Shown: positions 9,776 to 54,447, numbered from the whole stretch's first letter. The stretch: 63,520 nt of DNA, filler included, from Hausera hauseri (GCA_046269625.1; 12 parts of 12 records of this genome joined end to end with filler, not necessarily neighbours in it); one strand, 5' to 3'. The notes: generated by a model from the letters alone, not told the origin. Numbers and translations are program-made.

Positions 9776-12700
9776 CACGTACCGAATGAAATATGGTATA
9801 ACGTGAAAATCACTTCACATCACGTGACCAATCATAGGTTATAACGTGGCAAGTCACTTGACATCACGTGACCAATTATATGATATAACGTGCAAATCAC
9901 TTGACATCACGTGATCAATCATAAGACACAACGTGACAAATCACTTGACTTTACGTGACCAATCACATGATATAACGTGACAAATCACTTGACATCACGT
10001 GACTAATCATATGATATAACGCGAAAAATTACTTGACATAACGTCCCGAATCATATTTCATAACGTTACAAATCACTTGATATCACTTGAACAATCATAT
10101 GATATAACGTGACAAATCACTTGACGTCACGTGGCCAATCATATGACATAACGTGACAAATCATTTGACATCACGTGACCAATTATATTATATAACGTGA
10201 CAAATCACTTGACATCGCGTAACTAATCATATAATACAACGTGACAATTATTTGACATAACGGCCCCAATCATGTGGTATAACGAAACAAATAATTTGTC
10301 ATGACGTGAACACTCATATGACATAACGTGACAAATCACTTGACATCACGTGACCAATCATATGACATAACTTGACAAATGACTTGACATCACGTGAACA
10401 ATCATATGATCTAACGTGACAGATCACTTGACATTACGTGACCAATCATATGATATAACGTGACAAATCATTTGATATCACGGGACCAATCATATGGTAT
10501 AACGTGACAAATCACTTCATTTCACGTAACCAATCATATGGTATAACGTGACTAATTACTTGACATCACGTGACCAATCATATGATATAACGTTACAAAT
10601 CATTTGATATCACGTGACTGATCATATGATATAACTTGAAAAATTATTTGACATCACGTGCCCAATCATATGGTATAACGTGACAATTCACTTGACATCA
10701 CGTGACCAATTATATGACATAACGTGACAAATCACTTGATATCACGCGACGAAACATATGACATGACGTGACAAATTATTTGATATAACGTTACAATCAT
10801 ATGTTATAACGTGACAAATCACTTGACATCACGTGACCAATCATATGGTGTAACGTGACAAATCACTTGACATCACGTGACCAATCATATGACATAACGG
10901 GACAAATCAATTGACATCACGTGACTAATCATATGAAATAACGTGAGAAGTTACTGAACATCACGTACATAATCAAAAGACATAACGGGACAAATCACTT
11001 GATATCACTTCACCAATCATATGGTATAACTTGACACATCTCTAGACTTCACGTACCGAATGAAATATGGTATAACGTGAAAATCACTTCACATCACGTG
11101 ACCAATCATAGGTTATAACGTGGCAAATCACTTGACATCACGTGATCAATCATAAGACACAACGTGACAAATCACTTGACTTTTCGTGACCAATCACATG
11201 ATATAACGTGACAAATCACTTGACATCACGTGACTAATCATATGATATAACGTGAAAAATTACTTGTCGTCACGTCCCCAATCATATGTTATAACGAGAC
11301 AAATCACTTGATATCACGTTAACAATCATAAGACATAACGGGACAAATCACTTGACATCACGTGACTAATCATATGAAATAACGTGAAAAGTTACTGTAT
11401 GTCACGCCCCGAATCAAAAGACATAACGGGACAAATCACTTGATATCACGTCACCAATCATATGGTATAATGTGACACATCACTTGACTTCACGTACCGA
11501 ATCATATGGTATAAGGTGACAAATCATTTGACGTCACGTGACCAATCATAGGTTATAACGTGGCAAATCACTTGACATCACGTGATCAGTCATATGATAT
11601 AACGTGACAAATCACTTGATATCATATGACTAATCATATGACATAACGTGAAAAATTACTTGTCGTCACGTCCCCAATCATATGGTATAAGGTGACAAAT
11701 CACTTGACTTCACGTAACCAATAATATGGTATAACGTGACTAAACACTTGACATCACGTGACCAATCGTATGATATAATGTGGCAAATCACTTGACATCA
11801 CGTGACTAATCATATGACATAACGTAAAAAATTACTTGACATGCCGTCCCCAATCATATGGTATAACGTGAAAAATCACTTGACATCACGTCACCAATCA
11901 TATGACATAAGGTTACAATTCACTTGACATCACGTGAACGATAATAAGACATAACGGGACAAATCTCTTGATATCACGTCACCAATCATATGGTATAACG
12001 TGACAAAACACTTGACATCACGTGACCAATTATATGACATAACGTGACAAATCACTTGATATCACGCGACCAATCATATGACATGACGTGACAAATTACT
12101 TGGTATAACGTTACCAATCATATATTGTAACGTGAAAAATCACTTGACATCACGTGACCAATCATATAATGTAACGTGACAAATCATTTGACGTCACGTG
12201 ACCAATCATATGACACAACCGGACAAATAACTTGATATCACGCGACCAATCATATGATATGACGTGACAAATTACTTGATATAACGTCACCAATCATATG
12301 GCATAACGTGACAAATCACTTGACATCACGTGACAAATCATATTATATAACGGGACAAATCACTTGATATCACGTCACCAATCATACGTTATAAAGTGAC
12401 AAATCATTTGACATCACGTGACTAATTATATGATATAACGTGACAAATCACTTGACATCACGTCACCAATCTTACTTTATAATGTGACAAATCATTTGAC
12501 TTAACGTCCCCAAACATATGGTATAAAGCGAAAAGTCAATTGTTATGACGTGACCAATCATATGATATAATGTGACAAATCACTAGATTTCACATCACTA
12601 ATCATATGGTATAACGTGACAAATCACTTGACATCACGTGACCAATCATATGACATAACGTGACAAATCACTTCATATGACGTGACCAATCACAAGATAT

Positions 12701-15700
12701 AACGGGACAAATCTCTTGATATCACATCACCAATCATATGGTATAACGTGACAAATCACTTTACATCACGTGACCAATCATATGATATAACGTGACATAT
12801 CACTTGATATCACGTTACTAATCATATGAAATAACGTAAAAAATTATTTGACATCACGTCACCAATCATATGGTATAACGTGACAAATCACTTGACATCA
12901 GTTAACCAATCATATGATATAACGTCACAAATTACTTGACATCACGTGACTAATCATATGCTATAACGTGAAAAATTACTTGACATCACGTCGCAAATCA
13001 TATGGTATAACGTGACATATCACTACACATCACGTGACCAAACATGTGATATAACGTTACAAATCACTTGATATCACGTGATTTTTATATGATATGAAGT
13101 GAAAAATTAATAGACATCACCTTCCCAATCATATTGTATAACGTGACAAATCAGTTGATATCACGTCACCAATCGTATTGTATAACGTGACAAATCGCTT
13201 GACATCACGTGACCAATCATATGGAATAACGTGACAAATCACTTGGTATCACTTGAACAATGATAAGACATAACGGGACAAATCAATTGATATCTCGTGA
13301 TCAATCATAAGACATAACGGGCCAAATCGCTTGATATCACGTCACCAATCATACGCTATAATATGACAAATCATTTGACTTAACGTCCCCAATCATATGG
13401 AATAATGTGACGAGTCACTTGACATCACGTGACAAATCATGTGACATAAGATTACAAATCACTTGACATTACGTGACCAATCATATGATATAACGTGACA
13501 AATTAGTTGATATCACGTGACCAATCATAAGATATAAGGGGACAAATCAATTGGTATCATGTAACCAATCATGTGACATAAGATGGCAAATCACTTGACA
13601 TCACGTGACCAATCATGTGATATAACGTGACAAATAAGTTGATATCACGTGACCAATCATAAGATATAAGGGTACAAATCACTTGGTATCACGTCACCAA
13701 TTATACGGTATAACGTCACAAATCACTTGATATCTCTTGACCAATCATATGACATAAAGTGACAAATCACTTGATATCACGTGTCCATTCATATGATATA
13801 ACGTTACACATCACTTGACATCACGTGACTAATCATACGAAATAAAGTGAAAATTTATTTGTCATCACGTAATCAATCATATGTTATAACGTGACTAATC
13901 ACTTGACATCACGTGACTACTCATAAGATATAACGGGACAAATCACTTAATATCACGTCACCAATCATACGCTATAACGTGACAAATCACATGACGCAAC
14001 GTTCCCAATCATATGGAATAACGTCACAAGTCACTTGACATCACGTGACAAATCATATAATATAACGTGACAAATCACTTGACATCACGTGACTAATCAT
14101 ATGATATAACATGAAAAATGATTTCACATCACCTCCTCAATCATATGGTATATGGTGACAAATCACTTGACATCACGTGACTAATCATATGATGTAACAT
14201 GAAAAATGACTTCACATCACGTCCTCAATCATATGCTATAAGGTGACAAATCACTTGATATCACGTGACCAATCATATGATATAACGTGACAAATAAGTT
14301 GATATCACGTGACCAATCACAAGATATAACGGGACAAATCACTTAATATCACGTCATTAATTATATAATATAAAGTGACAAGTCACTTGACATCTCGTAA
14401 CCAATCATATGACATAAAGTGACAAATCACTTGATATCACGCGACGAATCATATGACTTGACGTGACAAATTACTTGATATAACGTCACCAATCATATAA
14501 TATAAAGTGGCAAATCACTTGACATCACGTGACCAATCAAATGATATAACGTGACAAATCACTTGACATCACGTCACCAATCATATGACATAACGTGACA
14601 AATAACTTCATATCACGTGACCAATGATAAGATATAACGGAACAAATCACTTGATATCATGTCACCAATCATATGTAATAACGTGACAAATCAATCGACA
14701 TCACGAGACCAATCATGAGATATAAGGGGACAAATCACTTCATATCACATGACCATTCAAAAGATATAACGGCACAAATCACTTGATATCACGTCACCAA
14801 TAATATGGTATAACGGTACAAATCACATGACATCACGTGACCAATCATATGGTATAAAGTGAAAAATCACTTGATATCACGTGACCAATCATATGATATA
14901 AAGTGACAAATCACTTGGCATTACGTGACCAATCATATGATATAACGTGACAAATCACTTGACATCACGTTACTAATCATATGAAATAACGTAAAAAATT
15001 ATTTGACATCACGTCATCAATCGTATGGTATAACGTGACAAATCACTTGGTAACACGGGCACAATGATAAGACATAAGGGGACAAATCAAGTGATATTAC
15101 GTGATCAACCGTAAGACATAACGGGACAAATCACTTGATATTACGTCACCAATCATACGTTATAACGTGACAAATCACTTGACTTAACGTGCCCAATTAT
15201 ATGGAATAACGTGACAAGTCACTTCACATCACGTGACGAATCATGTGACATAAGATGACAAATCAATTGACATCACGTGACGAATCATATGGCATAATGT
15301 GACAAATAAATTGATATCGCGTGACCATTCATAATATTTAACGGGACAAATCACTTGATATCACGTCACCAATTATATGTTATAACGTGACAAATCACTT
15401 GATATCATGTCACCAATTATATGTTTTAACGTGACAAATCACTTGATATCATGTCACCAATCATATGTTATAACGTGACAAATCACTTGATATCATGTCA
15501 CCAATCATATGTTATAACGTGACAAATCACTTGACATCAGGAGACCAATCATAAGATATAACTGGACAAATCACTTCATATCACGTGACCAATCAAAAGA
15601 TATAACCAGACAAATCACTTAATATCACGTCACCAATCATATGTTATAACGTGACAAATCACTTGGTATCATGTCATCAATCATATGTTATAACGTGACA

Positions 15701-18700
15701 AATCACTTGATATAATGTCACCAATCATATGTTATAACGTGACAAATCACTTGACATCACGAGACCAATCATAAGATATAACTGGACAAATCACTTCATA
15801 TCACGTGACCAATCAAAAATATAACGGAACAAATCACTTGATATCACGTGATTATTCATAGGAAATAACGTGAAAATTTAATTGACATCACGTAACCAAT
15901 CATATGGTATAAGGTGACTAATCACCTGACATCACGTAACTAATCATAAGACATAACGGGACAAATCACTTGATATCACGTCACCAATGGTATGATATAA
16001 AGTGACAAATCACTTGGCATCACGTGACTAATCATATGAAATAACGTGAAAAATTATTTGATATCACGTCACCAATCATATGGTATAACGTGACAAATCA
16101 CTTGACATCAGTTAACCAATCATATGGTATAACGGCACAAATTACTTGACATCACGTGACTAATCACATGAAATAACGTAAAAAATTATTTAACATCACG
16201 TCACCAATCATATGGTATAACGTGACAAATCACTTGACATCAGTTAACCAATCATATTATATAACGGCACAAATTACTTGACATCACGTGACTAATCATA
16301 TGATATAACGTGAAAAATTACTTGACATCACGTCTTAAATTATATAGTATAACGTGACATATCATTTGATATCAAGTGATCAATCATATGACTCAACGTG
16401 ACAAATCACTTGATATCACGTGACCAATCATAAGACATAACGGGTCAAATCACTTTATAGCACGTCACCAATCATACGGTATAACGTGACAAATCACTTG
16501 AATTCACGTCACCAATCATATGATATAACGTGACAAATCACTTGATATCACGTGACCAATCATATTACATAACGTGAAAAATAAGTTGATATCACGTGAC
16601 CAATCATAATATATAACGGGATAAATCACTTTCTATCACGTCACCAATCATATGGTATAGCGTGAGAAATCATTTGACTTCACGTCACGAATCATATGAT
16701 ATAATGTGACAAATCACTTGATATCACGCGACCAATCATATGATATGACGTGACAAATTACTTGATATCACGTGACCAATAATATGACATGACGTGACAA
16801 ATTACTTGATATCACGTCATTAATCATATGGTATAACTTGACAAATCACTAATCATCACGTGACCAATATATGACGTAACGTGACAAATCACTTGACATC
16901 ACCTGACCAATCATATGACATAACGTGAAAAATCACTTTACATCACGTGACCAATCATAAGCATAACGGGACAAATCACTTTATATCACGTCACCAATCA
17001 CGTGGTATAGCGTTACAAATCATTTGATTTCACGTCACCAATCATATGGTATAACGTGACAAATCACTTGACATCACGTGACCAATCATAAGCATAACGG
17101 GACAAATAACTTCATATCACGTCACCAATCATATGGTATAAAGTGACAAATCACTTATCATCACGTGACCAATATAGTACGTAACGTGACAAATCAATTG
17201 ACATCACCTGACCAATCATATGACATAAAGTGACGAATCACTTCATATCACGTGACCAATGATAAGATATAACGGGTCAAATCACTTTATATCATATCAC
17301 CGATCATATGTTATAACGTGACAAATCACTTGACATCACGTGACCAATCATATGTCATAACGTGATAAATCACTATATATCACGTGACCAATAATAAGAT
17401 ATAACGCGACATATCACTTGACATTACGTCACCAATCATATGGTATAACGTGACAAATCACTTGAATTCACGTCACCAATCATAGGGTATAACGTGACAA
17501 ATCATTTGGCATCACGTGATCAATCATATGATATAACGTGACAAATCACTTGACATCACGTGACTAATCATATGATATAAGTTGCAAAATTTCTTTACGT
17601 CACGTCCCCAATCATATGATATAACGTGACAAATCTCTTGACATCACGTTACCAGACATATGATATAAGGCGAAAAATTACTTGATCTCAGGTGACCAAC
17701 AATATGACATAACATGACAAATCACTTGATATCACGAGAGCAGTCATAAGATATAACGGAACAAATCACTTGATATCACGTCACAAATCATATGGTATAA
17801 CGTTAAAAATCACTTGATATCACGTGACACATCACATGACATAACGTGACAAATCACTTGACATCATTTGACCAATCATAAGACATAATGTGACAAATCA
17901 CTTGATATCACGCGAGCAACCATAAGATATAACGGAACAAATCACTTGATATCACGTCCCAAATCATACGGTATAACGTGAAAAATCACTTGATATCAGG
18001 TGACCAATCACAAGACATAACGTGACAAATCTCTTGATATCACGTGACTAATCATAAGACATAACGGGACAAATCACTTGATATCACGTGACCAATAATA
18101 TGACATGACGTTAAAAATTGCTTGATATCACGTCACCAATCATATGGTATAACTTGACAAATCACTAATCATCACGTGACCAATATATGACGTAACGTGA
18201 CAAATCAATTGACATCACCGGACCAATCATGTGACATAACGTGAAAAATCACTTTATATCACGTGAACAATGATAACACATAACGAAACAAATGACTTGA
18301 TATCACGTCACCAATCATATGTTATAACGTGACAAATCACTTGACATCACATTACCAATCATATGACATAACGTGACAAATCACTTGATATCACGTGACC
18401 AATCATATGATATGACGTGACAAATCACTTCATATCACGTGATCAATCATATGATATAACGTGAAAAATTACTTTGCATCACGTGACTAATCATATAATG
18501 TAAAGCGAAAAATTACTTGACATCACGTCACCAATCATATGGTATAACCTGACAAATTACTTGACATCACGTGACCAATCATATGATATAACGTGACAAA
18601 TCACTTGATATCACGTGACCAATCATAAGATATAACGGGACAAATCACTTGATATCACGTCACCAATCATATGGTATAACGCAACAAATCATTTGACTTC

Positions 18701-19709
18701 ACGTCACCAATCATATGGTATAACGTGACAAATCACTTGATATCACGTCACAAATCATATGGTATAACATGAAAAATCACTTGATATAAGGTGACCAATC
18801 ACAAGACATAAAGTGAAAAATCTTCTGATATCACGTGAACATTCATAAGACATAACAGGACAGATCACTTGCTATCACGTAACCAATAATATGGTATAAC
18901 TTGACAAATGACTAATCATCACGTGACAAATATATGACGTAACGTGACAAATCATTTGACATCACCGGACCAATCATGTGACATAACGTGACAAATCACT
19001 TAATATCACGTGAACAATGATAAGATATAACGGAACAAATGACTTGATATCACGTCACAAATCATATGTTATAACGTGAAAATCACTTGACATCACGTGA
19101 CCAATCATATGACATAAGGTGACAAATCACTTGATATCACGTGACCAATCATATGACGTAATGTGACAAAACACTTGACATCAGGAGACGAATCAAAGAA
19201 CATAACGGGAAAAATCACTTACTATCATACCACCAATTATATGGTTTATTGTGACAAATCACTTGACATCAAGTGGCCAATCATATGGTATAACGTGACA
19301 AATATCTTGACATCATGTTACCAGACATATAGTATAAGACGAAAAATTACTTGATCTCAGGTGACCAATAATATGATATAAAGTGACAAATCACTTGATA
19401 TCACGCGAGCAATCATAATATTCAACGGTAAAAATCAATTAATATCACGTCACAAATCATATGTTATAACGTGAAAAATCACTTGGCATCACTTGACAAA
19501 TCATATGAAATAACGTGAAAAATTATTTGATATCACGTCCCCAATCATATGGTATAACTTGACAAATCACTTGATATCACGCGACCAATCATATGATATA
19601 ACGTCACAAATTACTTGACATCACGTGACTAATCATATGATATAACGTGAAAAATTACTTGACATCACGTCCCAAATCATATGGCATAACGTGACATATC
19701 ACTACTCAT
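9776..19709. repeat. 44-bp tandem satellite (~225 units), a dimer of related 22-bp halves: TCACGTGACCAATCATATGATA + TAACGTGACAAATCACTTGACA
   Basis: Uninterrupted tandem repeat filling the whole contig, read directly from the sequence. Confidence 0.98.
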
Positions 19710-30376: not shown

Positions 30377-31525
30377 ATGTCAAATGTTGCTGATGAATGC
30401 GGAATATGTTTTGATTCATACAAAAATACCGATTATGTAATCGTTATTCCATGTGAACATTCATTTTGTACCAGCTGTTTCGTTTTGATTTCTAAGACGG
30501 CTGATGTTTGCCCATATGACAGATTGAAATTTAATTCTATCCAAGATTCAAACAAGAAGTACGCCAGTATTGAAGAATTCAAAATAGCACATATTGATAA
30601 ATACTGTGAAGGATACAAAAGACTGATTGAAGAGCGGTTGCAGAAATTTGAAGAATTAATTGAAATTAGTACAAATATATCAAACAACAAAATCCCATTG
30701 AATGTGACAAACAATGAAATGATAAGGAACAAAGTTGAATATTTCAATCAATCATTATTTGTTAGAGAATATTTGACAGTACATGGAGATTTGTACAGAC
30801 TCTTACAAATGATAAGCGAATCCAAATTGTTAGACAAACAGAATGGTTTAGTGCATAACCTCTTATGCATCATAAATATGCTGTATGTATTAATAGATAA
30901 TTTCAAAGTCATATTGACTGTAATTAGTAATCCTCATTTACTACCAACGTTATCTAATGCATTGTTATGTGAAATTAATGTCAACAGTAAAGGATATTCT
31001 TTGATGAAAATTCTTTTATCAACTGCAACATCAAGGGATTTCAAAATAGAATGTTTAAAGTTCATTTCAAAAACGTCCTGGTCCGACAAGGAATGTGAAT
31101 TAATTCGAACTTCAGAAATACTTTTTGCAGTTCATACCGGTGATGATTCAATTTCCAATAAACATACTTCAGAAATCACAAATCTTATTGACTTTTTAAA
31201 TTCAAAAATAGATTCATTACGCCATACTAACTTTTTCGTTATTGTCAGCTCACTCATTTGCGAATATTTCAATTTACGCATTGAGACTCATCTGTGGGAC
31301 TACATTTCTTGGCTGAGTAAGTCATATTCAAGTGTCGACAGATGCAAATCGTTGGACCATTTTTCTAAACGTAATTCATGGTTTTATTTGAGTATGGAAT
31401 TTAGAGAAGCGTTGGGAAAGTATTATTGGATGAAATATGAGGCGTTTCAACTTCTTGAAGATGAATTTGGTTCAGAAGATATTCGAAATGACTTCCGACG
31501 AAGATTGGAACAAATTGTTCTTTGA
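30377..31525 (+). CDS. Intronless N-terminal RING-HC (C3HC3D-type) finger protein, 382 aa; putative E3 ligase
   Basis: CGIC..PCEHSFCTSC..CPYD in the first 50 aa; intact ORF in AT-rich flanks; AATAAA at ~31717. Confidence 0.85.
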   Translation: MSNVADECGICFDSYKNTDYVIVIPCEHSFCTSCFVLISKTADVCPYDRLKFNSIQDSNKKYASIEEFKIAHIDKYCEGYKRLIEERLQKFEELIEISTNISNNKIPLNVTNNEMIRNKVEYFNQSLFVREYLTVHGDLYRLLQMISESKLLDKQNGLVHNLLCIINMLYVLIDNFKVILTVISNPHLLPTLSNALLCEINVNSKGYSLMKILLSTATSRDFKIECLKFISKTSWSDKECELIRTSEILFAVHTGDDSISNKHTSEITNLIDFLNSKIDSLRHTNFFVIVSSLICEYFNLRIETHLWDYISWLSKSYSSVDRCKSLDHFSKRNSWFYLSMEFREALGKYYWMKYEAFQLLEDEFGSEDIRNDFRRRLEQIVL

Positions 31526-33225: not shown

Positions 33226-35228
33226 TGTTTTAGTCTCATGGATTATGCCCTGGAGTTTAGAATCGCGGACATTCCAACCAAAATTATGATAGAAATGACA
33301 TGAAGAACCGAACTAATGAAGCCGTTACCTCCGCTAGTATACATTCAGAAACCTTCAGAAGATGAGATTGAACAAAACGGGGAATCGTATAGATTAATCC
33401 CAGACGGCCGGAATACCCGGATTTTAGCGGTAAATTATGTGGAAAAGGATGATAGGTGGTACTTTCCAATCGAGATCTCCATTAGAAATACAAACGGAGA
33501 AGAAGTCTTAAACAAAGTAATTGCACCTTGAGTTAGAATCAAGGATACCTTTCCCGACGTTACTGGGATTACCAAACCTCAACTTGAAAAAGGAAAAGAC
33601 TTTTTGGAGATACAAGAAGACATAAGTCACTGTTTATATGGATACGTTGTTACTGGAATCCGAGTCCACGAAGCACTAGAACGATTAGGAATCAGACATG
33701 AATATATAGCCGGCATCCGAGAAATAAGCCGAAACCCAGCTCTCGTGAGTCAAGTAGAAAATACCCTAATGCGGAAAAGAGGATGTCTACTCCCCACCTC
33801 AGTGTCGCCTGAATCACAGTTCAAAATGATGTTAGAAGCCATGAATGGCGAAGGATTTAAATTCCCGAAATTAATGACGGCGAGCCAGCCGACAAAATTT
33901 ATCAAGAACGTTTATGACCATTTACGATGGGATAATGAATGGAAACCTAGAGAACCCATACAGAATGCAATATCTGATAATAATCCTAAATCGTTGATAC
34001 AAAAATTCCGAAAAGGGTTTAGTGAATACCCAGGTTATCGACAAATCGAGCCCCAAGGATCGAACCGAATGCGGATAACCATCCATAACCAGCAGAAGTC
34101 ATCAACTAGTAAAGCTCAGGAAGAACCGACGATGAATTCTGATGCTTCAGAAAACCAAAAAGGACAAAAGATGAAAACATCCTTCCTGGATTATATCCAT
34201 AAAAAGAGAAGCAAGACCAGCAAAGGTCAAATAGACGAAAAAGGATCAACGATAGATAACCCAATTCCGTAGGAACCCATGAACAATCAAAAAGGAATAT
34301 CAAGTCGAGAGAAAAAGAAAGAGGACAGTGAAAAACCGTTGGAAATTATGAAATCCAAATCTCTTAAGTGAGAAGTTAACGTTCTCAGGAAGAACTGGGA
34401 GGAAGATACCCCAATCATTGTTACAGAATTCGGCGAAGTGAAAGAGTACAAGAAAGTCCTCGTTATGGCCGAATATTACAGCAGAGGAAAAATCAAAGAG
34501 GCTGTATTTTACGTGTCCACCGTTTCAAAAAGAATAGTGAGTGGAAACGGGTATGCCAGAGAAGATCACGCCATAGGCATATACCTAGCCCCAATATTTC
34601 AATCAAAAAGTGGAACTAACAGATTAACAATTCCAGTGGACACCCAAGTCCGAATTCAGTTAAAAAGACAATATAAGAGAACTGGGATACCGGATTTGGA
34701 CAAACAAGAAATAGTAGAATGGACCCTAGTAGCAGTATCCGATGACCCGAGGAAAAGTTCGATAGACCCTAAGCAGAAGAGGTTGTACGGATATCTGTAC
34801 CAAGACAGGAAAGGACTCGTGTTCGAGAGAATTAAAGTGGATGAAAATCTGGTGGATATCGATGCGGCTGAGAAAGAAGTCCCGTTTGCGATGCAGATCT
34901 ATACCAAGGATTCGTAGTCCTAGATAATAAAGATTGCAATCACAAGTACTGCAGATACTGCTTAGAAACGTGCACCCTAAAAAATGAGAAGACGACCTGC
35001 CCGGTATGCAGAGCCAAAGCTACAAGGCTGAGATATTATTCGAACGGAGAAAATAAGAAAATAATATAGATAGTACCCGAATAGGCCAGTACATCCCACC
35101 ATATTGAATCGCGATCCCCATCGAACGAAATAGATTCGGAAGCGGACTTACGCGGAAGAATGGAGCGATTACTCCAAATTCCCGGCACATCTACTGACGC
35201 AATGGGCTCATTCGAGAGTGCCGTTTAG
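33226..35228 (+). pseudogene. 3' accessory ORF of an LTR retroelement: pseudo-DEDDh exonuclease domain (33418-33845), low-complexity linker, unknown domain, C3HC4 RING (34879-35009)
   Basis: ORFs 33316, 33604 and 34438 share a frame. RING PVC..CNHKYCRYC..CPVCR lies one base out of frame. The ORF ends at the PPT. Confidence 0.75.
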
Positions 35229-35789
35229 GGAGGAGAAATGTTACAAAGTACAGTCATGATGACTTCCAATCAAATGTACGTAACCAGTTAGGAATAAACG
35301 GAAGTTGAATGATAATAGAATTTGTAAATAATTAGGACGTTGAATACCAATTTTGTAAATAATTTATGTAAATAATGATGATTTTGTTCTAATTGTTATG
35401 AGAAAATCGGCCACGTTAATTAGAATAAATAAATAGAAATGAATATTTATTTAACGGAAAATGAAAGGCCAGCTGTAAATACAGAATCAGTTGCTATATA
35501 AGCAAGTGCCTAGAACCATCGGTGTAGTTGAAGTTAGTTTGAAATTTAGTACGAATTGCGAAAACCGTCACAAGTGAGAATTCCGAAGATTGGGAAATTC
35601 GAAATTGATCAGCATTAGAAACTGTATTATCCGATTAATTAGTGAACTGAAATTCTTGTCTTGTTAGACGATTCTGATCATTGAACTGTGTTTAAACGGC
35701 GTGGTATATTTTGTTTTGTATTAAATATATCTTGTATTTTAAAATTCTTATAGTTTTTCCGTCGCTCTTTAAGAGGGACTAGTACTACA
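35227..35789 (+). mobile_element. Polypurine tract (AGGGAGGAGAAA) and 3' LTR (~35239-35789)
   Basis: The purine run is followed immediately by TGTTAC. TATATAA at ~35496, ATTAAA at ~35720, and the block ends ..ACTACA. The second LTR is not in the contig, so the right boundary is approximate. Confidence 0.65.
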
Positions 35790-35799
35790 CTAGGTTATA

Positions 35800-37479
35800 A
35801 AATCATTCTCTAAAATCTATAGTTAAGACTAGAGTTTTGTAATTTACGCATTCACCACACACAGTACCTGCAAGATAAAATAGTGCAAACATTCTAACGA
35901 GAACGTTACAACTTATCTGCTTAATTAAAACTATCTTAAATTTAAGTTCAATAATTGTTATAGTTAAGTATTGGATAGGGCCCACCTTCAACTACTAGCA
36001 AAAGCAATCTTTCAGCATGTCACAAAAATTCCCAATCAATTAAAGTATGGCCCAACGGTTAACAGGCATGCAAAAATGATAGCTATTACCAAAACTCACC
36101 AACGTGAAATAAACGAATTCATTACGGAATGCCCGTCTATTGATGGTATAGTCCTACATTTAGCTCGTGGTACAATCGTTCTCAAAACGATTAAGAATTA
36201 ACAGTATGCATTATCCAATATTACTACCATATTCAAAGAAGAAAGTCTCGCTATTAATACACCTATGAGCACACGTATATTACAATTTCGATTAAACCGT
36301 GATCTTATTATTTTAATGTTAGAATGGTTTTGCCTGAAAAACATTTAAGAATACCAAAACCAATGGTAATGGCCCAAACACCATCAGAAATAATAAAAGA
36401 AACCAGACTCAATTTTTTACACACCGCATAGGCAGGTACGATAAGAATATTAAGTGTTTCGTTAGGTTTTATTGAAGACAAGACCTCCTTTCGTGTAGAA
36501 GTTCTCGTATCGGACAATAAAAACAAAATATTGTTTCAAACTCTCGTAGTCAACAGAGTCAAAATACACAACCTCAACACCGGACGCCATGGCATAAATT
36601 TCCAGACTTTACAAACTCATAGAACAGATATATACGAAGTGATCAAAGAACTAATCCAATGGTTATTTGGTATAATAGTCGTCGGTATTGATAAACACCG
36701 AATGCTGAAAATATTTGATGTATCCCCAAGTTATCTGGCAGGAATAATAAACGTGCTCAAACATCCTGAAGTTAATGGAATCACATTCAATCATGTAGAT
36801 ATAACTAATGCGGCCAGAGAACTTAAACTCCAAAAATTTAGAATGGGTCAGCAGTAAAATCAAGATAGCTATGGGAAATTGGAATTAACCAGAGATATAC
36901 TGCAAGTAATACACGATATAAAGCAAGTGAATTGGACCCCTGACAATCCCGTGGAAAATATTGTAGACGTTGCAGACTTGTTCTACCAAAGGGATAAATA
37001 CTTCGAAAACTTTTCCTGGACTCATAAAATCAGTGTTAGCTTCTTAAACGAGAGCCAAATTGTAAATCAGACGGACTTTATAGAGGAAGATATGGATTTG
37101 AACACTCCTGAGAATGTTACCATCCAAGATCCAGAGAGTGAAGATTCAGAAGATATCATTGATAACCTCGATATTCAGCAAATACTGGACACGAAAACCT
37201 TGGAGAATGAGGAAGAAGATATTGGAAATTGGATTCACCCAAAAGGATTAGTAAATATATCTACGCAAACTTGCCTTTGGGATACAGATAAATTGGCAAA
37301 TCAAATAGAAAGAAACTTAATGACTAATGATGAAGTGATTTTTCATTTTGGAATTATAACAAAAAGAGGATATTTAAGCCTGCCGATACCAATACATCAT
37401 ATAGACAGGCCTTATTACATTAGACGGACCATTTCTGCAAAAAATTGGGTATTTGGAATACCGATAAAAACATACTCTT
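35800..37479 (+). pseudogene. Older paralog of the retroelement accessory ORF containing a second pseudo-DEDDh domain (36444-36905)
   Basis: RILSVSLGFIEDKTSFRVEVLVSDNKNKILFQTLVVNRVKIHNLNTGRHGI..LFGIIVVG..YLAGI aligns with the domains at 33418 and 45154. QHVTKIPNQLK resembles PQVQQIPNNLK of ORF 44677. Confidence 0.65.
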
Positions 37480-42321: not shown

Positions 42322-43066
42322 TGTGTTTAACTACGGAGCACCACGAATACTATTTACCGATCAAGCATCTAATCTAACCGGGAACGTAATGCAAGCAATA
42401 TACGATATCATGAGAATATTAAAATTACTATCTACACAGGACATTCAGAGAATAACGGAATGGTTGAGAGATATATTGGAGATTTAAAAGGGAAACTGCA
42501 AACAGTAGTAAACACTAGACAAGATGATTGGGATGAATACATCAATGCATGTGATTTTGTGAATCGAACGTCAGTACACAAGGCTACTAAAGAAACCCCC
42601 TTCTATCTGATGTACTTACGAGACGCAAAGCTACCCATCGATTTAGACTTTAATGTAAAACCCACATCGCATCTGATGGAAGTAGAAGAGTACAAGCAAC
42701 TAGCAAGAACGTCTTCAGCTGGCATATAAAGTAATAGAAAGTAACCAGAAGGATTATAAGGCGAAGTATAAAAAGTATTACGACGAGAAGACCAAACAAT
42801 CAAAAATCAAAGTAAAAGATAAAATGATGCTATACACTCCACTAAGTAAGAAAGGTAAAACATCAAAGTTGGATAGACCTTATAAGGGACCATACGAAGT
42901 GGAAAAGGTGGATTTACCTAATATCTGTCTAGAGAAAAATAATACCTCTCTTAAGGTCCATGTCAATAGATGCAAACCGGCAGCTAAAGAAAGTAAACTT
43001 AGAAGAGATGAACAAGATATAGTAAGAAGTATTAATGAGAAAGTAGTAGAAACAAAACAAACATGA
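42322..43066 (+). mobile_element. Ty3/Gypsy integrase core and C-terminus (decayed)
   Basis: YGAPRILFTDQASN..GMVER..DWDEYI..RTSVHKATKETPFYLMY..KLDRPYKGPYEV..VHVNRCKP (GPY/F module). Confidence 0.92.
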
Positions 43067-44441
43067 GACTTTTACGGAGTAAAGAAATATTTTGTCATAA
43101 TTATCCTTATGCTTATTCCCCAAGCTCTAAGTCAGATGACAAAGTAAGAAATAGAGCGAGCAAAACTTCGACCTGCAATAGCTACAAACGAAGACTTACT
43201 ATTAAAGGGTTTACGATATCGAGTAACATATTCCAGTAAAGGCAAAAAATGTATTACATGGCATACACTAAAACGTATGACTTCTGACTATATGATAGGA
43301 ATCCAGTTAATACCTTCTGACGACTATCGGAGGAATCCTAATGAACGACAGTATACCTGTATACTCCCTCCGTAGATGAACAAAACGCAACGTGTTGTGG
43401 AAGATTCAGGAATCCATTATGCATATTTCACACTTATAAAGAAGAAAAGAAAGTACTATCGAAGTCAAATCACTAAATTTGCAAGAATTGTAAAAGTTCC
43501 CACTAGACACGAAATGAATGAAACATTTTTAGATGAAATAATAATAACCCACTTATCGGCTAGGTCAATCGGATTTAAAAGCGGAAGAAGTCGAATCGAA
43601 GTAAAGAGCATGATAAAATTGGAATATATGCGATGGATAACCATATTCATAAAAGAGACGAATGCTAAAAAGAATATAGTAAAAAGATATAGAATAACCA
43701 ATGAACAGCCAAAAGTTTGTTATAACGTTACAAGAGGTAGAATATATGAATTGAACTATAAGATTTCTCAAAAAGAATATGGTAAGTTTCTAGGTAGTAT
43801 AAAGAGGAAAGGTCCAATAATGTACGTACGATATCAAAATCGAATCGAACACGAGGAAAAAGAATGATCAAAAAGAGATGACTATCTTAATTAGACCATA
43901 CGTATCATATTACCGACAAAAGCGCTCAATATGGGAAAACACAACGATCACAGCGGCGCCGACCGCACTAATAATATCGCTAAAACCAGATCTTGATTTT
44001 TCAAAAGTAAAATTTACATGTAGGATACGAAATATAGTAATGGCAAAAGGAACCATAACACCAGATGATTTAATAGTGCCGTGCGCGGCATTTACCCCAA
44101 ATACTAGATTTACGATTATCTTACAGTTATTTGATGACGCTAATAAGATAGTTTCTACAAAGATCTTAATAGCTCAAACGAAAAGTGAAGTAGAGATAAA
44201 ACTTCCATTTAAGAAAGCAACCTTTGGCCAATTGATAACCATAATACCTCCATGTACAGGATATACACACTCACGGTTAGAGATAATAATATTATGCACA
44301 ACAATCCCAGTAGCACTAATAATCATGACGGCATTAGTAGTAAAACTGACTTGTTACCTACGAAAACGTCGCAGGACGAACTGGATAAGAATAGATCTGC
44401 GACGTATACCACATGCTTTGGATGTAGATAGTCCAAGCTGA
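43067..44441 (+). pseudogene. Env-like type I membrane protein: signal-like segment, basic ectodomain, RQKR furin site, FN3-like domain, TM, basic tail
   Basis: KKYFVIIILMLIPQALS is in frame with integrase after one TGA. RQKR at 43914-43925; AAFTPNTRFTIILQ resembles the FN3 LxPxTxYxIxV strand; TM IIILCTTIPVALIIMTALVV is followed by RKRRR. Confidence 0.7.
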
Positions 44442-44614
44442 CAATTACTGATAAGGATTACGACTATCGTAACCAAAGTAAGAGAGATAACGACTAACCC
44501 CGTTACCTTGTTAAATTATATACTAAAAGACAAACGATTGCATACATAAATTTGACAACCGTTATCTTATTTATTAGTTTTGTATTGACTATCATTCACA
44601 CTCTGTCTTTACAG

Positions 44615-45501
44615 TACCCAACCAGATTCAATCAATCAAACGATCAAAACATTGGTTCGGCAATGCTCTGAAACATTTGATGAACGCAAACCAAGCTAAC
44701 CAGTACTATACAATACTAAACGACAACACTTTCTCGCTGAATTATCCGCAAGTGCAGCAAATTCCGAACAACTTAAAGGGTTATAATATGGTTCACCTCA
44801 CAAAAGCCACTTCCTTCTTTCTAAAGGACTTGATAATTATGCCAGACAATTACCAGAGTGTTCAAATTTACACTATAGCTGAAAAATTTCAGATAAAAAC
44901 GAAGATAACTGGCGATCTCATAAATCTAGATCAGTGTTACGGAATATCCATCGATTTTCTTTTTGCAATTAAAAATGCCGTAAAAATCAAGTCCCTCTCC
45001 AGCCGAATTATGCTTGGCGTTGAAGTCATCAAAACCAAAAAACCATGGCCAACAAATCCCGCATGTAATTGTTTCAATCTCCCCGAAGTTAACTATCTCA
45101 ACATGAAAGAAAAATCCTATTGTCGAATCGCTAAAGTTGACCCCGACAACTGTATAATAGTGGTCGTTAACTTGGCATACGACTAATATAACCAAATGCA
45201 GCCAATTGAATGCTCAGTCGTGAAACCCAATGGAGATCCAGTTTTCTATACATTAATAATACCTCGACAAAGGATAAATAATTACGACACCCATGTAACC
45301 GGATTAACAGAATTATAAATAGCCAACCAGATGAACGTCCAACAGTTTTACGCCAAAATTTGGGAAATCCTTTCAGACAAGATGGTCATCGGGGCGGATG
45401 TAATCAACACAATTTCTACTTATTTGAAATGTCCACTACGGAGAATCGTAGGAATTCGTGATATTTTATCAATGAGAAGACGGCTCCCGAAAAGGTGTTA
45501 A
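44615..45501 (+). pseudogene. Accessory ORF with a third pseudo-DEDDh exonuclease domain (45154-45465)
   Basis: Read through two TAA stops: IIVVVNLAYD*YNQMQPIECSVVKPNGDPVFYTLIIPRQRINNYDTHVTGLTEL*IAN..IWEILSDKMVIG..IVGIRDI. Confidence 0.75.
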
Positions 45502-45952
45502 AAGCATCGCCTACAACATTTAACAAAAAGAGAAGGTTAAACATGGATGAGGAAGTTTTAATAGATGGCGAGATTTATACAATGGACGCCACTCGTTATA
45601 AGGTTCCATCTGGAAAGACAGTCTTCCTCCCGTCACAGTCGTAAAAATGAGGACAATTTCTTCAATCTCCCATCAGTTTATTGAGTGGACTATGTACAAA
45701 ATTTACATTAGTAATGTCATGGACCGATTAGTTATATTATTTATGATTTATCGAGTGAACTATGTACATTAATGATGTTATGAACCGACTATTTGCATTA
45801 TTTATGCATGATTAATATTATTCTTGTCTTTGGGTTATTTCGACTAATGAAGAAATTCTTAATTGAGATTTACATGTATCATATGATCGTTCTTTGATTG
45901 TACAGCGAATTTTTATTTACATTTGAGGCATTATTGACAGTTGTTGAACTCC

Positions 45953-46431: not shown

Positions 46432-46447
46432 TGGTGCCGTGACTCGG
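46432..46447 (+). promoter_or_regulatory. Primer-binding site complementary to the tRNA-His 3' end
   Basis: TGGTGCCGTGACTCGG is the reverse complement of CCGAGUCACGGCACCA; it lies 2 nt after the LTR-terminal CA and upstream of gag. Confidence 0.85.
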
Positions 46448-48585: not shown

Positions 48586-48658
48586 TGGATCACCTGGGTA
48601 TCGATCCCAGTACCTCCTGCATGCTAAGCAGGCGCTCTACCATCTGAGCTAGTGACCC
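48586..48658 (-). tRNA. tRNA-Ala(AGC)
   Basis: GGGTCACTAGCTCAGATGGTAGAGCGCCTGCTTAGCATGCAGGAGGTACTGGGATCGATACCCAGGTGATCCA: 73-nt full cloverleaf, G3:U70 pair, AGC anticodon, eukaryotic Ala-type T-loop, and a T8 terminator downstream. Confidence 0.96.
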
Positions 48659-48699: not shown

Positions 48700-51600
48700 C
48701 GGTAAAATCCTTGGACCTACTTCCCGATACCTACGTATTTGTGCTCAGCGAGGTGAATTGGGTCAGAATAATTTATGGACTTACCTAGTTCCGGATACCT
48801 GCATATTTGCACTCACCGCAGTGAATTGTGCCGTAAATAAATTGCACTAATCTAGTTCCGGACACCTGCATATTTCGGAGCCCTGCAATGAGTTGAGCCG
48901 ATGACAATTTGGACTGATCTACTTCCGGACTCCTGCATATTTGCACTCACCGCAATGAGTTGCGTCGAAAATACTTTCGACTGACCTAGATCTGGACACC
49001 TGCATACTTGAACTCACCGCATTTATTTGAGCGGAAGAAAATTTTGAACTTTTCTAATTCCTGACACCTGCATATTTGGACTCACCGCAATTATTTAAGC
49101 CGAAAGAAATTTTGGACTGCTCTAGTGCGGACACCAGCATATTTTTCTCAACGAAGCGAGTTGGGTCGGAAAATTTTTTGGACTTACCTAGATCGGGCCG
49201 CCTATCATATATGGACTTACCGCAATGAATTGAGCCGAAAAAGATTTTCGAATGATCTCATTCCGGACACCTGCATATTTGCACTCAGCGAAACGAATCG
49301 AGCCGTAAAAATTTGGACTGAGCTTGTTCCGGATACCTAAATAATTTGACTCAGCGAGGTGAGTTGTGTCGGAAAAATTTTTGGACTGAGCTAGTTCCGG
49401 ACACCTGCATATTTGCACTCAGCGAGGTAAGTTGCGTCGAAAATTTTTTGGACTGAGCTAGTTCTGGACACCTGCATATTTGTACTCAGCGAGGTGAGTT
49501 GGTTCAGAAAATTTTTTGGACTTACATAGTTCCGGTCACCTGCATATATGGACACACCGCAAAGACTTGAGCCGAAAAAAATTTTCGACTGATCTTATTC
49601 CGGACGCCAGAATATTTGGACTCAGCGCCATGAGTTGCGTCGAAAAGAATTAGGACTGACATAGTTTCGGACACCTGCATATTTTGACTCACCGCAATGA
49701 ATTGAGCCGAAGAAAATAAGGACTGAAGTAGTTTTTGGCACGTGCATATTTGCCCTAACCGAAATGAATTGAGCCGTAAAAATTTGGACTTAGCTAGTTC
49801 CGGACACCTGCATACTTGGACTCACCGCAATTATTTGAGCCAAAGAAAATTTTGAACTTATCTATTTCCGGACACCTGCATATTTGTAGTCACCGAGATG
49901 CATTGGGTGGGTACAAATTTTATACTCACCTATTTCCGGACACCAGCACATTTGGACTCAGAGCCATGAGTTGAGGCAAAAAGAATTAGGACTGGCCTAG
50001 TTCCGGACACCTGCATATTTTGACTCACCGCAATGAATTGAGCCGATAAAAAATAAGAACTGATATAGTTTCGGACATCTGCATATTTGCACTCACCGAA
50101 ATGAATTGAGCCGTAAAAATTGGGAGTGAGCTAGGTCCGGACACCTGCATACTTGGACTCACCGCAATTATTTAAGCCGAAGAAAATTTTGAAATTATCT
50201 AGTTCCGGACGCCTGCATATTTGTACTCAACGAGGTGCATTGGGTCGGAAAAATTTTTGTACTCAAATATTTCCGGACACATGCATATTTGAGCTCATGG
50301 AAATATATTTAGCCGAAAAAAATTATGGATTGATCTATTTACGGACACCTGCATATTTGTACTCAGCGAAGGGATTTGGGTCGGAAAAATTTTTGTGTGT
50401 CCTAGTTCCAAACACCTGCATACTTGGACTCTCCGCAATTATTTGAGCTGAAGAAAATTTTTACTTATCTATTTCCGGACACCTGCATACTTGGACTCAC
50501 CGCAATTATTTGAGCCGAAGAAAATTTTGACTTATCTATTTCCGGACACCTGCATATTTGTACTCACCGAGGTGCATTGGGTCGGTAAAATTTTTATACA
50601 CACTATTTCCGGACACCTTAATATTTGGACTCAGCGCCATGAGTTGAGTCGAAAAAAATTTGGACTGACCCAGTTTCGGACACCTGCATATTTGCACTCA
50701 CCGAAGTGAATTGAGCCTGAAAAATTTGGACTGATCTAGTTTCGGACACCTGCATATTTGTACTCACCGCAATGATTTGAGCCGAAAAAAATTTTGAACT
50801 TACCTAGTTCCGGACACCTGCATATTTTTACTCACCGAGGTGCATTGGGTCGGAAAAATTTTTATATTCACATATTTCCGGACACCTGCACATTTGGACT
50901 CAGCGCCATGAGTTGAGGCAAAAAGAATTAGGACTGGCCTAGTTCCGGACATTAGCATATTTGGACTCTGCGCCATGAGTTGAGTCGAAAAAATTTGGAC
51001 TGACCTAGTTCCGGACACCTGCATAATTGTACTCAGCGAGAAGAGTTGTGTAGGAAAAATTTTTGGACTGACCTAGTTCCGGACACCTGCATATTTGTAC
51101 TCTCCGAGATGCATTGAGTCGGTAAAATTTTTATAATCACCTATTTCCGGACACCTGCATATATGGACTCACCGCAATGAGTTGAGCCGAAAACAATTTT
51201 CGACTGATCTAGTTCCGGACAACAGCATATTTGGAATCAGCGAGGTGAGTTGAGTCGAATAAAATTTGGACTGACCTAGTTCCGGACACCTGCATATATG
51301 GACTCACCGCAATGAGTTGAGCCAAAGAAAATTTTAAACTTATCTAGTTTCGGACACCTGCATACCTGGACTCACCGCAATTATTTGAGCGGAAGAAAAT
51401 TCGGAATATACCTTGTTCCGGACAGCTGCATATTTGGAATCAGCAACGTGAGTTTGGTGGGCAATATTTGAACTTGCATAGTTCCGGACACCTGCATACT
51501 TGGACTCACCGTATTTATTTGAGCGGTAGAAAATTTTGAACTTATCTAATTCCTGACACCTGCATATTTGTATTCACCGAGGTGCATTGGGTCGGTAAAA

Positions 51601-54447
51601 TTATGTACTCACCTGGTTTCGGACACCTGCATAATTGGACTCAGCGCCATGATTTGAGTCGAAAACAATTTTGACTGACCTTGTTTCAGACACCTGCATA
51701 TATGCATTCACCGCAATGAGTTAAGCTGAAAAACATTTTCGACTGATCTCCTTCCGGACACCAGCATATTTGAACTCAGCGAGGTGAGTTGGGTCGGAAA
51801 AATTCTTTGACTTATCTATTTCAGGACACCTGCATATTTGGACTCACAGCAATTATTTGAGACGAAGAAAATTTTGAACATATCTAGTTCCGGACACCTG
51901 CATATTGTACTCACCGCGATGAGTTGAGTAGAAAAAACTTAGGACTGATCTAGTTCCGAACACCACCATATTTGAAATCAGCGAAGTGACTTGGCTTGGA
52001 AAACTTTTTGGACTTACCTAGTTTCGGACACCTGCATACTTGGACTCACCGAATTTATTTGAGCCTAAGAAAATTTTGAACTTACCTAATTCCGAACACC
52101 TGCATATTTGTAGTCACCGAGGTGCATTTGGTAGGTAAAATTTTTGTACTCACCTTGTTCCGGACACCTGCATATTTGTACTCAACGCCATGAGTTGACT
52201 CGAAAAAAATTTGGACTGACGTAATTACGGACACCTGCATATGTGTACTCAGCGAGGTGAGTTGGGTTAGAAAATTTTTTGGACTTGCCTAGTTCCGGAC
52301 ACCTGCATACTTGGACTCACCGCAATTATTTGAGCCGAAGAAAATTTTGAATTTATCTAATTCCGGACACCTTCATATTTGTACTCACCGAGGTACATTG
52401 AGTCGGTAAAATTTTTTACTCACCTATTTCCGGACACCTGCATATTTGGACTCACTTCCATGATTTGAGTCGAAAAAAATTTGGAGTGACCTAGTTCCGG
52501 ACACCAGCATATTTGGACTCAGCGAAGTGAGTTGGGTCGGAAAATATTTCGACTTACCTAGTTCCGGACACCTGCATATTTGAACGCACGGCAATGTGTA
52601 TAGCCCAAAAAAATATTGGACTGATCTACTTCCGGACACTTGCATGTTTGTACTCAGCGAGGTAAGTTGGATCAGAAAATTTTTTGGACTTGCCTAGTTC
52701 CGGACACCTGCATACTTAAACTCACCGCAATTATTTGAGTCGAAGAAAATTTTGAACTTATCTAATTCCAAACGCCTGCATATTCGTACTCACCGAGGTG
52801 CATTAGGTCGGTAAAATTTTTGTACTCCCCTGGTTCCGGACACGTGCATATTTGGACTCAGCGCCATGAGTTGAGTCGAGAAAAGTTTGGACTGACCTAG
52901 TTCCGGACACCTGCAAATATGGACTCCCCGCAATGAGTTGATCCAAAAAATTTTTTCGACAGATCTCTTTCTGGACAAGAGCATATTTGTACTTATCGGG
53001 GTGAGTTGGATCGAAAAATATTTGGACTGACCTAGTTTTGGACACCTGCACATTTGTACTCAGTAAGGTGAGTTGGGTCAGAAAATTTTTTGGACTTACC
53101 TAGTTCCGGACACATGCATACTTGGACTCACCGCAATTATTTGAGCGGAAGAAAATTTTGAACTTATCTAGTTCCGGACACCTGTATGTTTGTACTCACC
53201 GAGGTGCATTGGGTCGGTAAAATTTTTATACTCACCTATTTCCGGACACCTGCATATTTGTACTCAGCGCTTGATTTGAGTCGAAAAAAATTTGGACTGG
53301 CCTAGTTCCGGACATTAGCATATTTGGACTCAGCGCCATGAGTTGTGTCGAATAAAATTAGGTCTGACCTAGTTCCGGACACATGCATATTTGGACTCAC
53401 CGCAATTCTAGGAACCGAAGAAAATTTTGAACTTATCTAGTTCCGGACACCTTCATATTTGTACTCACCGAGGTACATTGGGTCGGTAAAATTTTTATAC
53501 TCACCTATTTCCGGACACCTGCATATTTGGACTCACGGCAGTGTATTTAGACGAAAAATTTTTGGATTGATCTAGTTCCGGAAACCTGCATATTTGGACT
53601 CAGCGAGGTGAGTTGTGTCGGAAAAATTTTTGGACTTACCTAGTTCCGGACACCTGCATACTTGAACTCACCGCAATTATTTGAGCGGAAAAAAATTTTG
53701 GACTGATCTACTTCCGGACACCAGCATATTTGTACTCAGCGGTGTGAGTAGGGTCGGAAAAAATTTGGACTGACCTAGTTCCTGACCAAGTCCATTAACC
53801 TCGCTGATTCCAAATATGCAAGTGTCCGGAATTAGGTCAGTCAAAAAATTTTTCTACTCAACTCATTGCTGTGAGTGCAAATATTCAGGTGTCCGGAACT
53901 AGGTCAGTGCAAAATTTTTTTCGTCTCAACTCATTGCTGTGAGTCCAAATATGCAAGTGTCCGGAATTAGGTGAGTCCAAATATTTTTTAGTCTCAACTC
54001 ATTGCGGTGAGTCCAAATATGCAGGTGTCCGGAACTGGGTCAGTCCAAAATTTTTTTCGACACAACATACTGCTGTGAGTGCAAATATGCAGGTGTCCGG
54101 TATTCGGTCAGTCCAAAATTTTTTCCAAGCCCATTCACCTCGCTGATTCCAAATATGCAGGTGTCCGGAACTAGGTCAGTGCAAAAGTTTTTCCAAGTCC
54201 ATTCACCTCGCTCATTCCAAATATGCAGGTGTCCGGTAATAGATCAGCCCAAATTTTTATCTGTTTAATCCACTGCCGTGAGTCCAAATATGCAGGTGTC
54301 CGGAACTCGGTCAGTCCAAAAAATTTTCCGAACCAGCTAACTTCGCGGTGTCCAAATATTCAGGTGTCCAGAACTGGGTCAGTCCAAAATTTTTTTCGAC
54401 ACAACATACTGCTGTGAGTGCAAATATGCAGGTGTCCGGTATTCGGT
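48700..54447. repeat. ~66-68-bp tandem satellite (~85 units) with an orientation switch at ~53787
   Basis: Consensus about AGTTCCGGACACCTGCATATTTGGACTCACCGCAATGAGTTGAGCCGAAAAAATTTGGACTGACCT; units are reverse-complemented after ~53787. Confidence 0.97.

Follow-up and report, generated by a model that had tools for sequence, protein, structure and literature searches.

The question raised by this locus is what kind of protein was once encoded by a broken reading frame that carries a RING finger and runs up to a polypurine tract, and whether this RING and a nuclease-like fold belonged to the same chain. The window, i.e., the whole stretch of 63,520 nucleotides that was analysed from Hausera hauseri (GCA_046269625.1), consists of 12 contigs of 4–10 kb joined by N-TTAATTAATTAA-N spacers, and neighbours across a spacer are not genomic neighbours. 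The contig with the RING spans positions 33226–37479 (4254 nt, GC 0.37), while on the remaining contigs parts of Ty3/gypsy elements and satellites occur beside a fragment of a fatty-acid elongase and mononegavirus-like fusion proteins. This content points to a repeat-rich eukaryote, most likely an invertebrate animal, a flatworm being a guess based on the genes present. The satellites comprise an array of approximately 10 kb built from 22/44-bp units (9791–19703) and a 68-bp satellite (48714–54447, with an inverted block from 53786), the latter adjoined by a tRNA-Ala gene (48586–48658). A scan of the sequence for sigma-70 sites, a bacterial motif that has no meaning for a eukaryote, stayed at chance level (3 vs. 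4.0). All features of the RING contig described below lie on the plus strand.

A long decayed reading frame of 551 codons occupies positions 33226–34878; its 5′ end is cut by the start of the contig and it is interrupted by four stops (33301, 33529, 34270, and 34369). This frame, to which the ORF with a GTG start at 34438 belongs, is shifted by one base relative to the RING frame, which can be followed from 34881 and encodes seven of the eight zinc ligands of a C3HC4 RING, the first ligand codon having been destroyed by a net −1 frameshift (34878–34880) and lost at 34878/34879. Behind the RING follows a C-terminal tail (35013–35228). The initial annotation had this frame end at the polypurine tract and TGTTAC; the tract (35227–35238) does abut TGTTAC at 35239, but the frame carries stops at 35067, 35082, and 35226, the first two being situated approximately 160 nt ahead of the tract. 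In all, seven in-frame stops and the frameshift were counted in the window copy.

The damage was compared with sister contigs from two public runs, X1 (share 0.35, possibly the window's own source) and X2 (share 0.06). In the variant rows listed, 40 out of 1110, at least five of the seven stops are sense codons in nearly all of the sister-contig depth of both runs, with the sense codon read by 25 contigs in X1 and 10 in X2 at 33303, and by 20 and 4 at 34270, 38 and 6 at 34370, 27 and 4 at 35067, and 12 and 3 at 35082, respectively; the stops at 33529 and 35226 are absent from those 40 rows. Furthermore, at 34879, the site of the frameshift, loose ends occur in 23 X1 contigs, and one X2 contig (record 12) that runs across it has 171 letters over 167 window bases, i.e., four gaps. 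As the sister contigs read sense codons and one of them carries four extra letters at the frameshift, the damage appears private to the window copy, which is a pseudogene; no sister contig piece covers the whole ORF. Of the 1-nt deletion originally proposed to hide the RING, the net −1 shift stands, but the lesion looks like a loss of 4 nt relative to the sister copies, the loss of a single nucleotide from a shorter variant being a possible alternative.

An intact relative was found when ORF 34375–34878 was compared with longer proteins, with one match among 478 candidates: an unnamed ENA protein of 870 aa (hereafter P0003), located on a 16-kb contig and bearing RING annotations. Residues 180–740 of P0003 align with the upstream frame (40% identity, E-value 4e−128), the RING frame is matched at 43% identity (E-value 3e−28), and the alignment is unbroken between both frames. 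The domain order of P0003, all in one uninterrupted frame, is an AlkB/cupin-like barrel, an ISG20-like DEDDh fold, a basic linker, a domain that we call X, and a C3HC4 RING. This frame continues through the purine tract and stops just inside the LTR-like block; its last five residues are those encoded across the purine tract and TG junction of the window, while the tail before the tract is 32% identical. The fusion of a pseudonuclease and a RING, which the initial annotation had proposed for one protein and which it expected intact copies to display, is real in this natural relative, where both domains share a single ORF and the ISG20-like fold retains none of the five catalytic residues. The proposed joining of the RING to ORF 34438 was also right in that both are in the same frame in P0003, but this ORF holds domain X only, and the nuclease-like part for which it had been taken lies further upstream at 33412–33942, in frame with it but with two additional stops in between.

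Identity between the window copy and P0003 falls from the RING (73%) through domain X (55%), the barrel tail (51%), and the nuclease fold (41%) to the linker (28%), a gradient that fits selection on folded domains. The intact fusion is represented by this one database protein, available without genomic context, together with short contig pieces. A word-index search with residues 175–870 of P0003 returned only the protein itself and one plant RING, its branch was not found in JGI metagenomes, and the viral contigs searched held no relatives of P0003 or of P0010, a family member discussed below.

The RING of the window copy (34881–35012, ligands 2–8, ending in a P-x-C-R motif) was recognized by Pfam zf-C3HC4 (PF00097) with an E-value of 2.8e−5 and 24.3 bits against a cut-off of 21, which bears out the C3HC4 assignment made at the outset in the shifted frame, and 32 of its 44 residues are identical to those of P0003. 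With a loose pattern of seven ligands, the window yields a single match, and 1000 shuffles of the contig yield none. In P0003 the RING (747–790, PF00097 30.8 bits, same cut-off of 21) has all eight ligands in C3HC4 order and spacing, as well as a Trp in the central helix and an Arg that follows the final Cys, in alignment with the same residues of RLIM and listerin. These two residues are E2-facing and E2-activating marks of active RING E3s; the window copy keeps the Arg and has a Cys at the position of the helix Trp. The RING is predicted, with good confidence, to be an active E3 in intact copies.

The other parts of the chain were examined with the help of an AlphaFold model of P0003 built on an 18-row alignment, which is confident at approximately 60–205 and 240–420 (mostly pLDDT 80–93 in the DEDDh fold) and falls below 50 beyond 423. 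The contig begins in the end strands of an AlkB/cupin-like double-stranded beta-helix with its connector (33226–33390, 51% identity to P0003 176–235), the remainder of this domain lying beyond the contig end. Against 2OG-oxygenase/AlkB folds, P0003 61–205 gave a best Z of 9.7 (rmsd 3.9, 136 aligned residues), only modestly over a background of 7–8, and the fold matches at Z 8.2–9.7 were Ofd2, prolyl hydroxylases, ALKBH1/6/7, and AlkB, with cupins retrieved by Foldseek. The HxD/E metal motif is absent from 13 of 15 family rows, P0003 included, while 12 of the 15 retain one His. Even at an overall identity below 20%, a Tyr, an IPNxLK motif, an Arg, a His, a Ser/Thr, and a Glu are preserved in 10–14 of the 15 rows, which suggests a conserved binding pocket, possibly a nucleotide-binding one. 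The Foldseek list for the barrel includes nucleoside phosphorylase ppnP cupins.

The ISG20-like DEDDh pseudonuclease follows at 33412–33942. Its counterpart in P0003 (243–417) superimposes on human ISG20 (1wlj) with Z 17.1 and rmsd 2.6 over 156 aligned residues, the next match being at 13.6, and on other DEDDh nucleases, and Foldseek related the fold to ISG20/REX4-type nucleases (PDB 1wlj and 7yw5) with an E-value of 3e−7. Atlas features placed it with RNase_T clusters (0.93) and an arenavirus nucleoprotein cluster (0.91), while searches of BFVD folds yielded nothing more specific than generic exonucleases, cupins, and replicases bearing AlkB, and PHROGs only a polymerase exonuclease family. 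The catalytic D-E-D-H-D residues are missing altogether (0 of 5) in the window copy as well as in P0003. A charged, weakly conserved low-complexity linker (33943–34452, 28% identity to P0003 430–598, pLDDT < 50) leads to domain X, approximately 140 aa at 34453–34863, which contains ORF 34438 and is 55% identical to P0003 600–740. This domain had no Pfam or Atlas match, no PDB sequence better than an E-value of 0.49, and no match among the proteins and loci analysed, with P0003 as its one relative.

In order to place the chain in a wider family, a profile of the upstream frame was run against 1.84 billion representatives, resulting in 30 matches with E-values up to 0.001. Among these, the linker and domain X are represented in P0003 alone, P0005 being a close fragment of the N-terminal part, and a RING was detected by Pfam in none of the 29 matches other than P0003. 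Fifteen of the 29, picked by rank and length, were examined and 13 of them reach the barrel motifs ahead of the nuclease; the remaining 14 were set aside because they are probably ordinary exonucleases, although four of them served as outgroups, and P0015, P0016, and P0018 were not inspected. Across 19 family rows, 7 keep D-E-D-H-D, 1 is truncated with D-E-D, and 11 are without most catalytic residues. The window copy groups with P0003 and P0005 in one clade (support 100/99), whereas deeper branches are not separated and long branches meet there. Among the members compared, the RING is, by sequence, fused in this branch only. The ten clusters that were looked up have 1–3 members each and no informative name, and a word-index search with the family alignment gave 3 matches among 8000 scored candidates. 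A separate observation concerns P0007, whose C-terminus consists of duplicated biotin carboxylase pieces and which is probably an assembly chimera; a possible barrel remnant at 1735–1818, suggested by tblastx, was not recovered by the family profile and was dropped. In the accessible portions of the literature, with most subscription papers and the repeat databases outside its scope, no barrel and DEDDh accessory family and no pseudonuclease–RING retroelement fusion was found; the family seems undescribed, and the supplements of Grohme 2018 and Lee 2026 may describe the ORF.

The genomic setting of the family was read from the loci of its members. P0010, which has intact catalytic residues and no RING, is present at four loci and in all four is the last ORF before a conserved TGTT-starting junction. 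On L001 it is followed by an LTR-like region (3033–4614), a primer site at 4621, which we take to be Lys-type, and a gag with a CCHC knuckle. Upstream of P0010, locus L004 (1–6727) encodes two RING-H2 proteins, an IAP-type C3HC4 RING, a TRAF (RING, zf-TRAF, and MATH), and two ORFs without family. The four loci (L001–L004) are Ty3/gypsy-type; ahead of the LTR their accessory ORFs stand in tandem, a whole ubiquitin-signalling kit on one element. When six RINGs were compared, the fused RING scored best against the two RING-H2 ORFs of L004 (99 and 90, the others 23–48), which in this small set is in line with its capture from the elements' own pool of accessory genes. An intact single-exon ORF of 382 aa also occurs in the window (30377–31525), with an N-terminal RING (PF13639, E-value 1e−9) and a helical unassigned body in AT-rich DNA; it was rejected as source or partner of the fused RING, being on a different contig and scoring low (47).

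The window itself holds a third family member (44578–45552, 53% identity to P0006) between an integrase-like tail, read by eye and without a Pfam match, and a Ty3 gag. The contig concerned (42322–48446) has the appearance of a permuted Ty3/gypsy element, with the integrase-like tail, an ORF at 43050–44450, the barrel and dead DEDDh, an LTR-like region, a primer site at 46433, presumably His-type, and a CCHC gag; the ORF at 43050–44450 has a hydrophobic start, a late transmembrane stretch, and no Pfam family. The Ty3/gypsy order of pol was not seen in the loci examined, and gag is linked only for relatives, namely on L001 and on this contig. Two further contigs of the window (1–4907 and 5008–9675) carry decayed frames that are 67% identical to each other and encode a coiled-coil and then a Monjiviricetes-type fusion glycoprotein in the same polyprotein.

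Taken as a whole, the locus is best explained, in our view with somewhat better than even confidence, as the decayed copy of an accessory gene that lay 3′-most in an LTR retroelement of the Ty3/gypsy type, in an invertebrate animal genome, and encoded an anti-host single-chain E3. The intact product would be one protein of about 815–870 aa, from barrel to RING, in which a RING carried by the element had been joined to a dead representative of an older accessory family of barrel and exonuclease. The RING would recruit host E2-ubiquitin, and domain X would most likely pick the substrate, as it adjoins the RING and is better conserved than the nuclease fold, while the dead enzyme folds could serve as modules for RNA or small-ligand binding and localization. 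Besides the pseudonuclease, there are two equally good substrate-binding candidates that the initial annotation missed, the AlkB/cupin-like barrel and domain X. The purpose would most likely be to weaken the ubiquitin-based innate-immune or cell-death responses that the host mounts against the element: by analogy, the TRAF, IAP-type RING, and RING-H2 neighbours point more to immune and cell-death signalling than to small-RNA silencing, a suggestion that draws on the genes beside a distant relative (about 17–20% identity) and not on those beside the branch itself.

The first rival keeps the fusion and changes the target. Here the pseudonuclease would bind RNA 3′ ends or RNPs and bring the RING to RNA-bound silencing factors (PIWI, Argonaute, or RNA sensors) for degradation, as the dead ISG20-like fold and the RING in one chain could imply. 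The dead DEDD folds of Maelstrom and EXD1 retain RNA binding in the piRNA pathway, according to PMC5408684, and the same replacements at the first two catalytic positions in P0001, P0003, P0005, and P0006 suggest that the catalytic site is constrained. However, no result supports such a substrate, and dead nucleases are also present in 8 family rows outside the branch, where no RING was seen, which argues against a tie between catalytic loss and the RING. The ISG20-like fold is, moreover, not basic (24 K + R, 24 D + E), is less conserved than domain X, and is separated from the RING by a linker of 170 aa, and we consider a silencing-factor target unlikely. A related scenario, in which a new accessory family with active and dead members gave rise to a dead branch that took up the RING from the accessory genes of the elements themselves and became a nucleic-acid-guided E3 removing PIWI/Argonaute or RNA sensors from element RNA, appears to us improbable; if true, it would make the gene the transposon counterpart of anti-restriction ligases of viruses.

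The second rival concerns the block downstream of the RING, where the initial annotation had placed the 3′ end of an LTR element. The block (35239–35910) starts with TGTTAC directly behind the purine tract, a junction conserved in P0003, and contains a TATA-like box (35495) and AATAAA/ATTAAA signals (35293, 35424, and 35720), with candidate 3′ ends at 35789 and 35910. It is directly followed by a paralogue of the ORF (paralogue B, 35953–37479, 24% identical), at the place where a primer site and gag would be expected; the paralogue is a decayed barrel and dead DEDDh ORF, recognized by the profile at 35953–36402 (E-value 7e−7) and 36270–37244 (E-value 2.5e−15) and cut by the contig end. The sequence from 35239 onward could be a promoter/terminator spacer between tandem paralogues of a larger element, or the product of a nested insertion or an assembly chimera. 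This reading is favoured by the paralogous ORF standing in for a primer site and gag, by the tandem accessory-ORF arrays of related elements, by a drop of approximately 50-fold in X1 depth after 36065 (from about 10,000 to about 200), and by the lack of a second copy of the block in the window, where the 4.25-kb contig holds one, and of any real similarity to other LTRs (best E-value 0.009 over 18 nt against those of L001, L004, and the window's other LTR-like region). The contig shows no gag, pol, target-site duplication, or second LTR, and none of the three TGG sites in 35701–36070 was recognized as a tRNA complement, the end of the LTR being uncertain.

Against the spacer stand the junction of purine tract and TG, which P0003 preserves despite its divergence, the position of relatives as the last ORF before the LTR, and the sister-contig depth over the block, which is high towards either end and falls off in between (35356–35639). 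Depth is not copy number here, but high ends with a low middle would fit a variable U3. X2 contigs have loose ends behind 35242 and 35789. The first 110 nt of paralogue B fall in a stretch of very high depth (peak at 35966), and its remainder is of low depth. The placement of paralogue B would be sufficiently explained by any one of an accessory-only non-autonomous element, a nested insertion, or a chimeric contig. As regards the 3′ end of an LTR element, the tract abutting TG and the position of relatives uphold it, while the single copy and the lack of a recognized primer site do not; we regard the block from 35239 as probably an LTR, and the spacer, insertion, or chimera as an unlikely explanation of the locus.

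The weakest rival, which gives the RING a structural or self-regulating role (self-ubiquitination, oligomerization, or RNP assembly) in a protein that serves the replication of the element instead of host antagonism, could appeal to two dead enzyme folds, to the absence of a recognized host-targeting motif, and to the many relatives without a RING, but it is very improbable given that the RING is the best-conserved part, that its E2-facing residues are kept in P0003, and that related elements carry several stand-alone E3-type genes.

Few counter-defence proteins are known from the retrotransposons of animals. The concrete, soluble domains of this gene would allow asking whether LTR elements destroy host defence proteins via ubiquitination, and the wider family that it exposes, having active and dead members, would offer a natural series for the change from nuclease to adaptor.

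Several known systems resemble parts of the gene. Fold-wise, the nuclease is like ISG20/REX4-type enzymes and the arenavirus nucleoprotein ExoN, which are DEDDh, yet the present branch has 0 of 5 catalytic residues, with all five kept in 7 of the 19 family rows. The RING of P0003 shares ligand spacing, the helix Trp, and the Arg with RLIM, listerin, RNF4, and viral single-chain RING E3s, but is element-borne. Among retroelements, the Juno/Vesta LTR retrotransposons and Terminons of bdelloid rotifers carry a DEDDy exonuclease as ORF3 (Rodriguez, Kenefick, and Arkhipova 2017, PMC5408684). The Juno/Vesta case is alike in having a DnaQ-like exonuclease as an extra 3′ ORF, for which a silencing role is discussed there, and unlike in that the rotifer enzyme is RNase D-like DEDDy with intact catalysis, whereas the fold described here is of the ISG20/DEDDh type, dead, and accompanied by the barrel, domain X, and the RING; the word RING has no occurrence in the main text of that paper. 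The giant Ty3/gypsy element Burro of planarians, with its gag-env-pol polyprotein, carries ubiquitin and apoptosis modules (MATH/TRAF, BIR, RING, and BCL2-like) and a mononegavirus-like fusion protein, as described in PMC6431247, and a second-hand account in PMC13465017 has the BIR and RING of Burro1 protect stem cells from apoptosis (Lee 2026); the portions seen of PMC8532177 and PMC11410931 added nothing on domains. The likeness to Burro lies in the TRAF and IAP-type RING ORFs of L001–L004 and in the Monjiviricetes fusion protein on two other contigs of the window (1–4907 and 5008–9675), where the placement of the glycoprotein recalls the env position of Burro. By description, the resemblance is one of gene content in L002 and L004 only, and the gene itself has neither BIR nor BCL2, gag, or pol linked to it; the accessible part of PMC6431247 names no exonuclease, barrel, or pseudonuclease–RING fusion for Burro. 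RING modules have a precedent in Burro, and what has been described separately, the exonuclease ORFs of rotifers and the RING/IAP/TRAF modules of Burro, is joined by the present gene in one chain.
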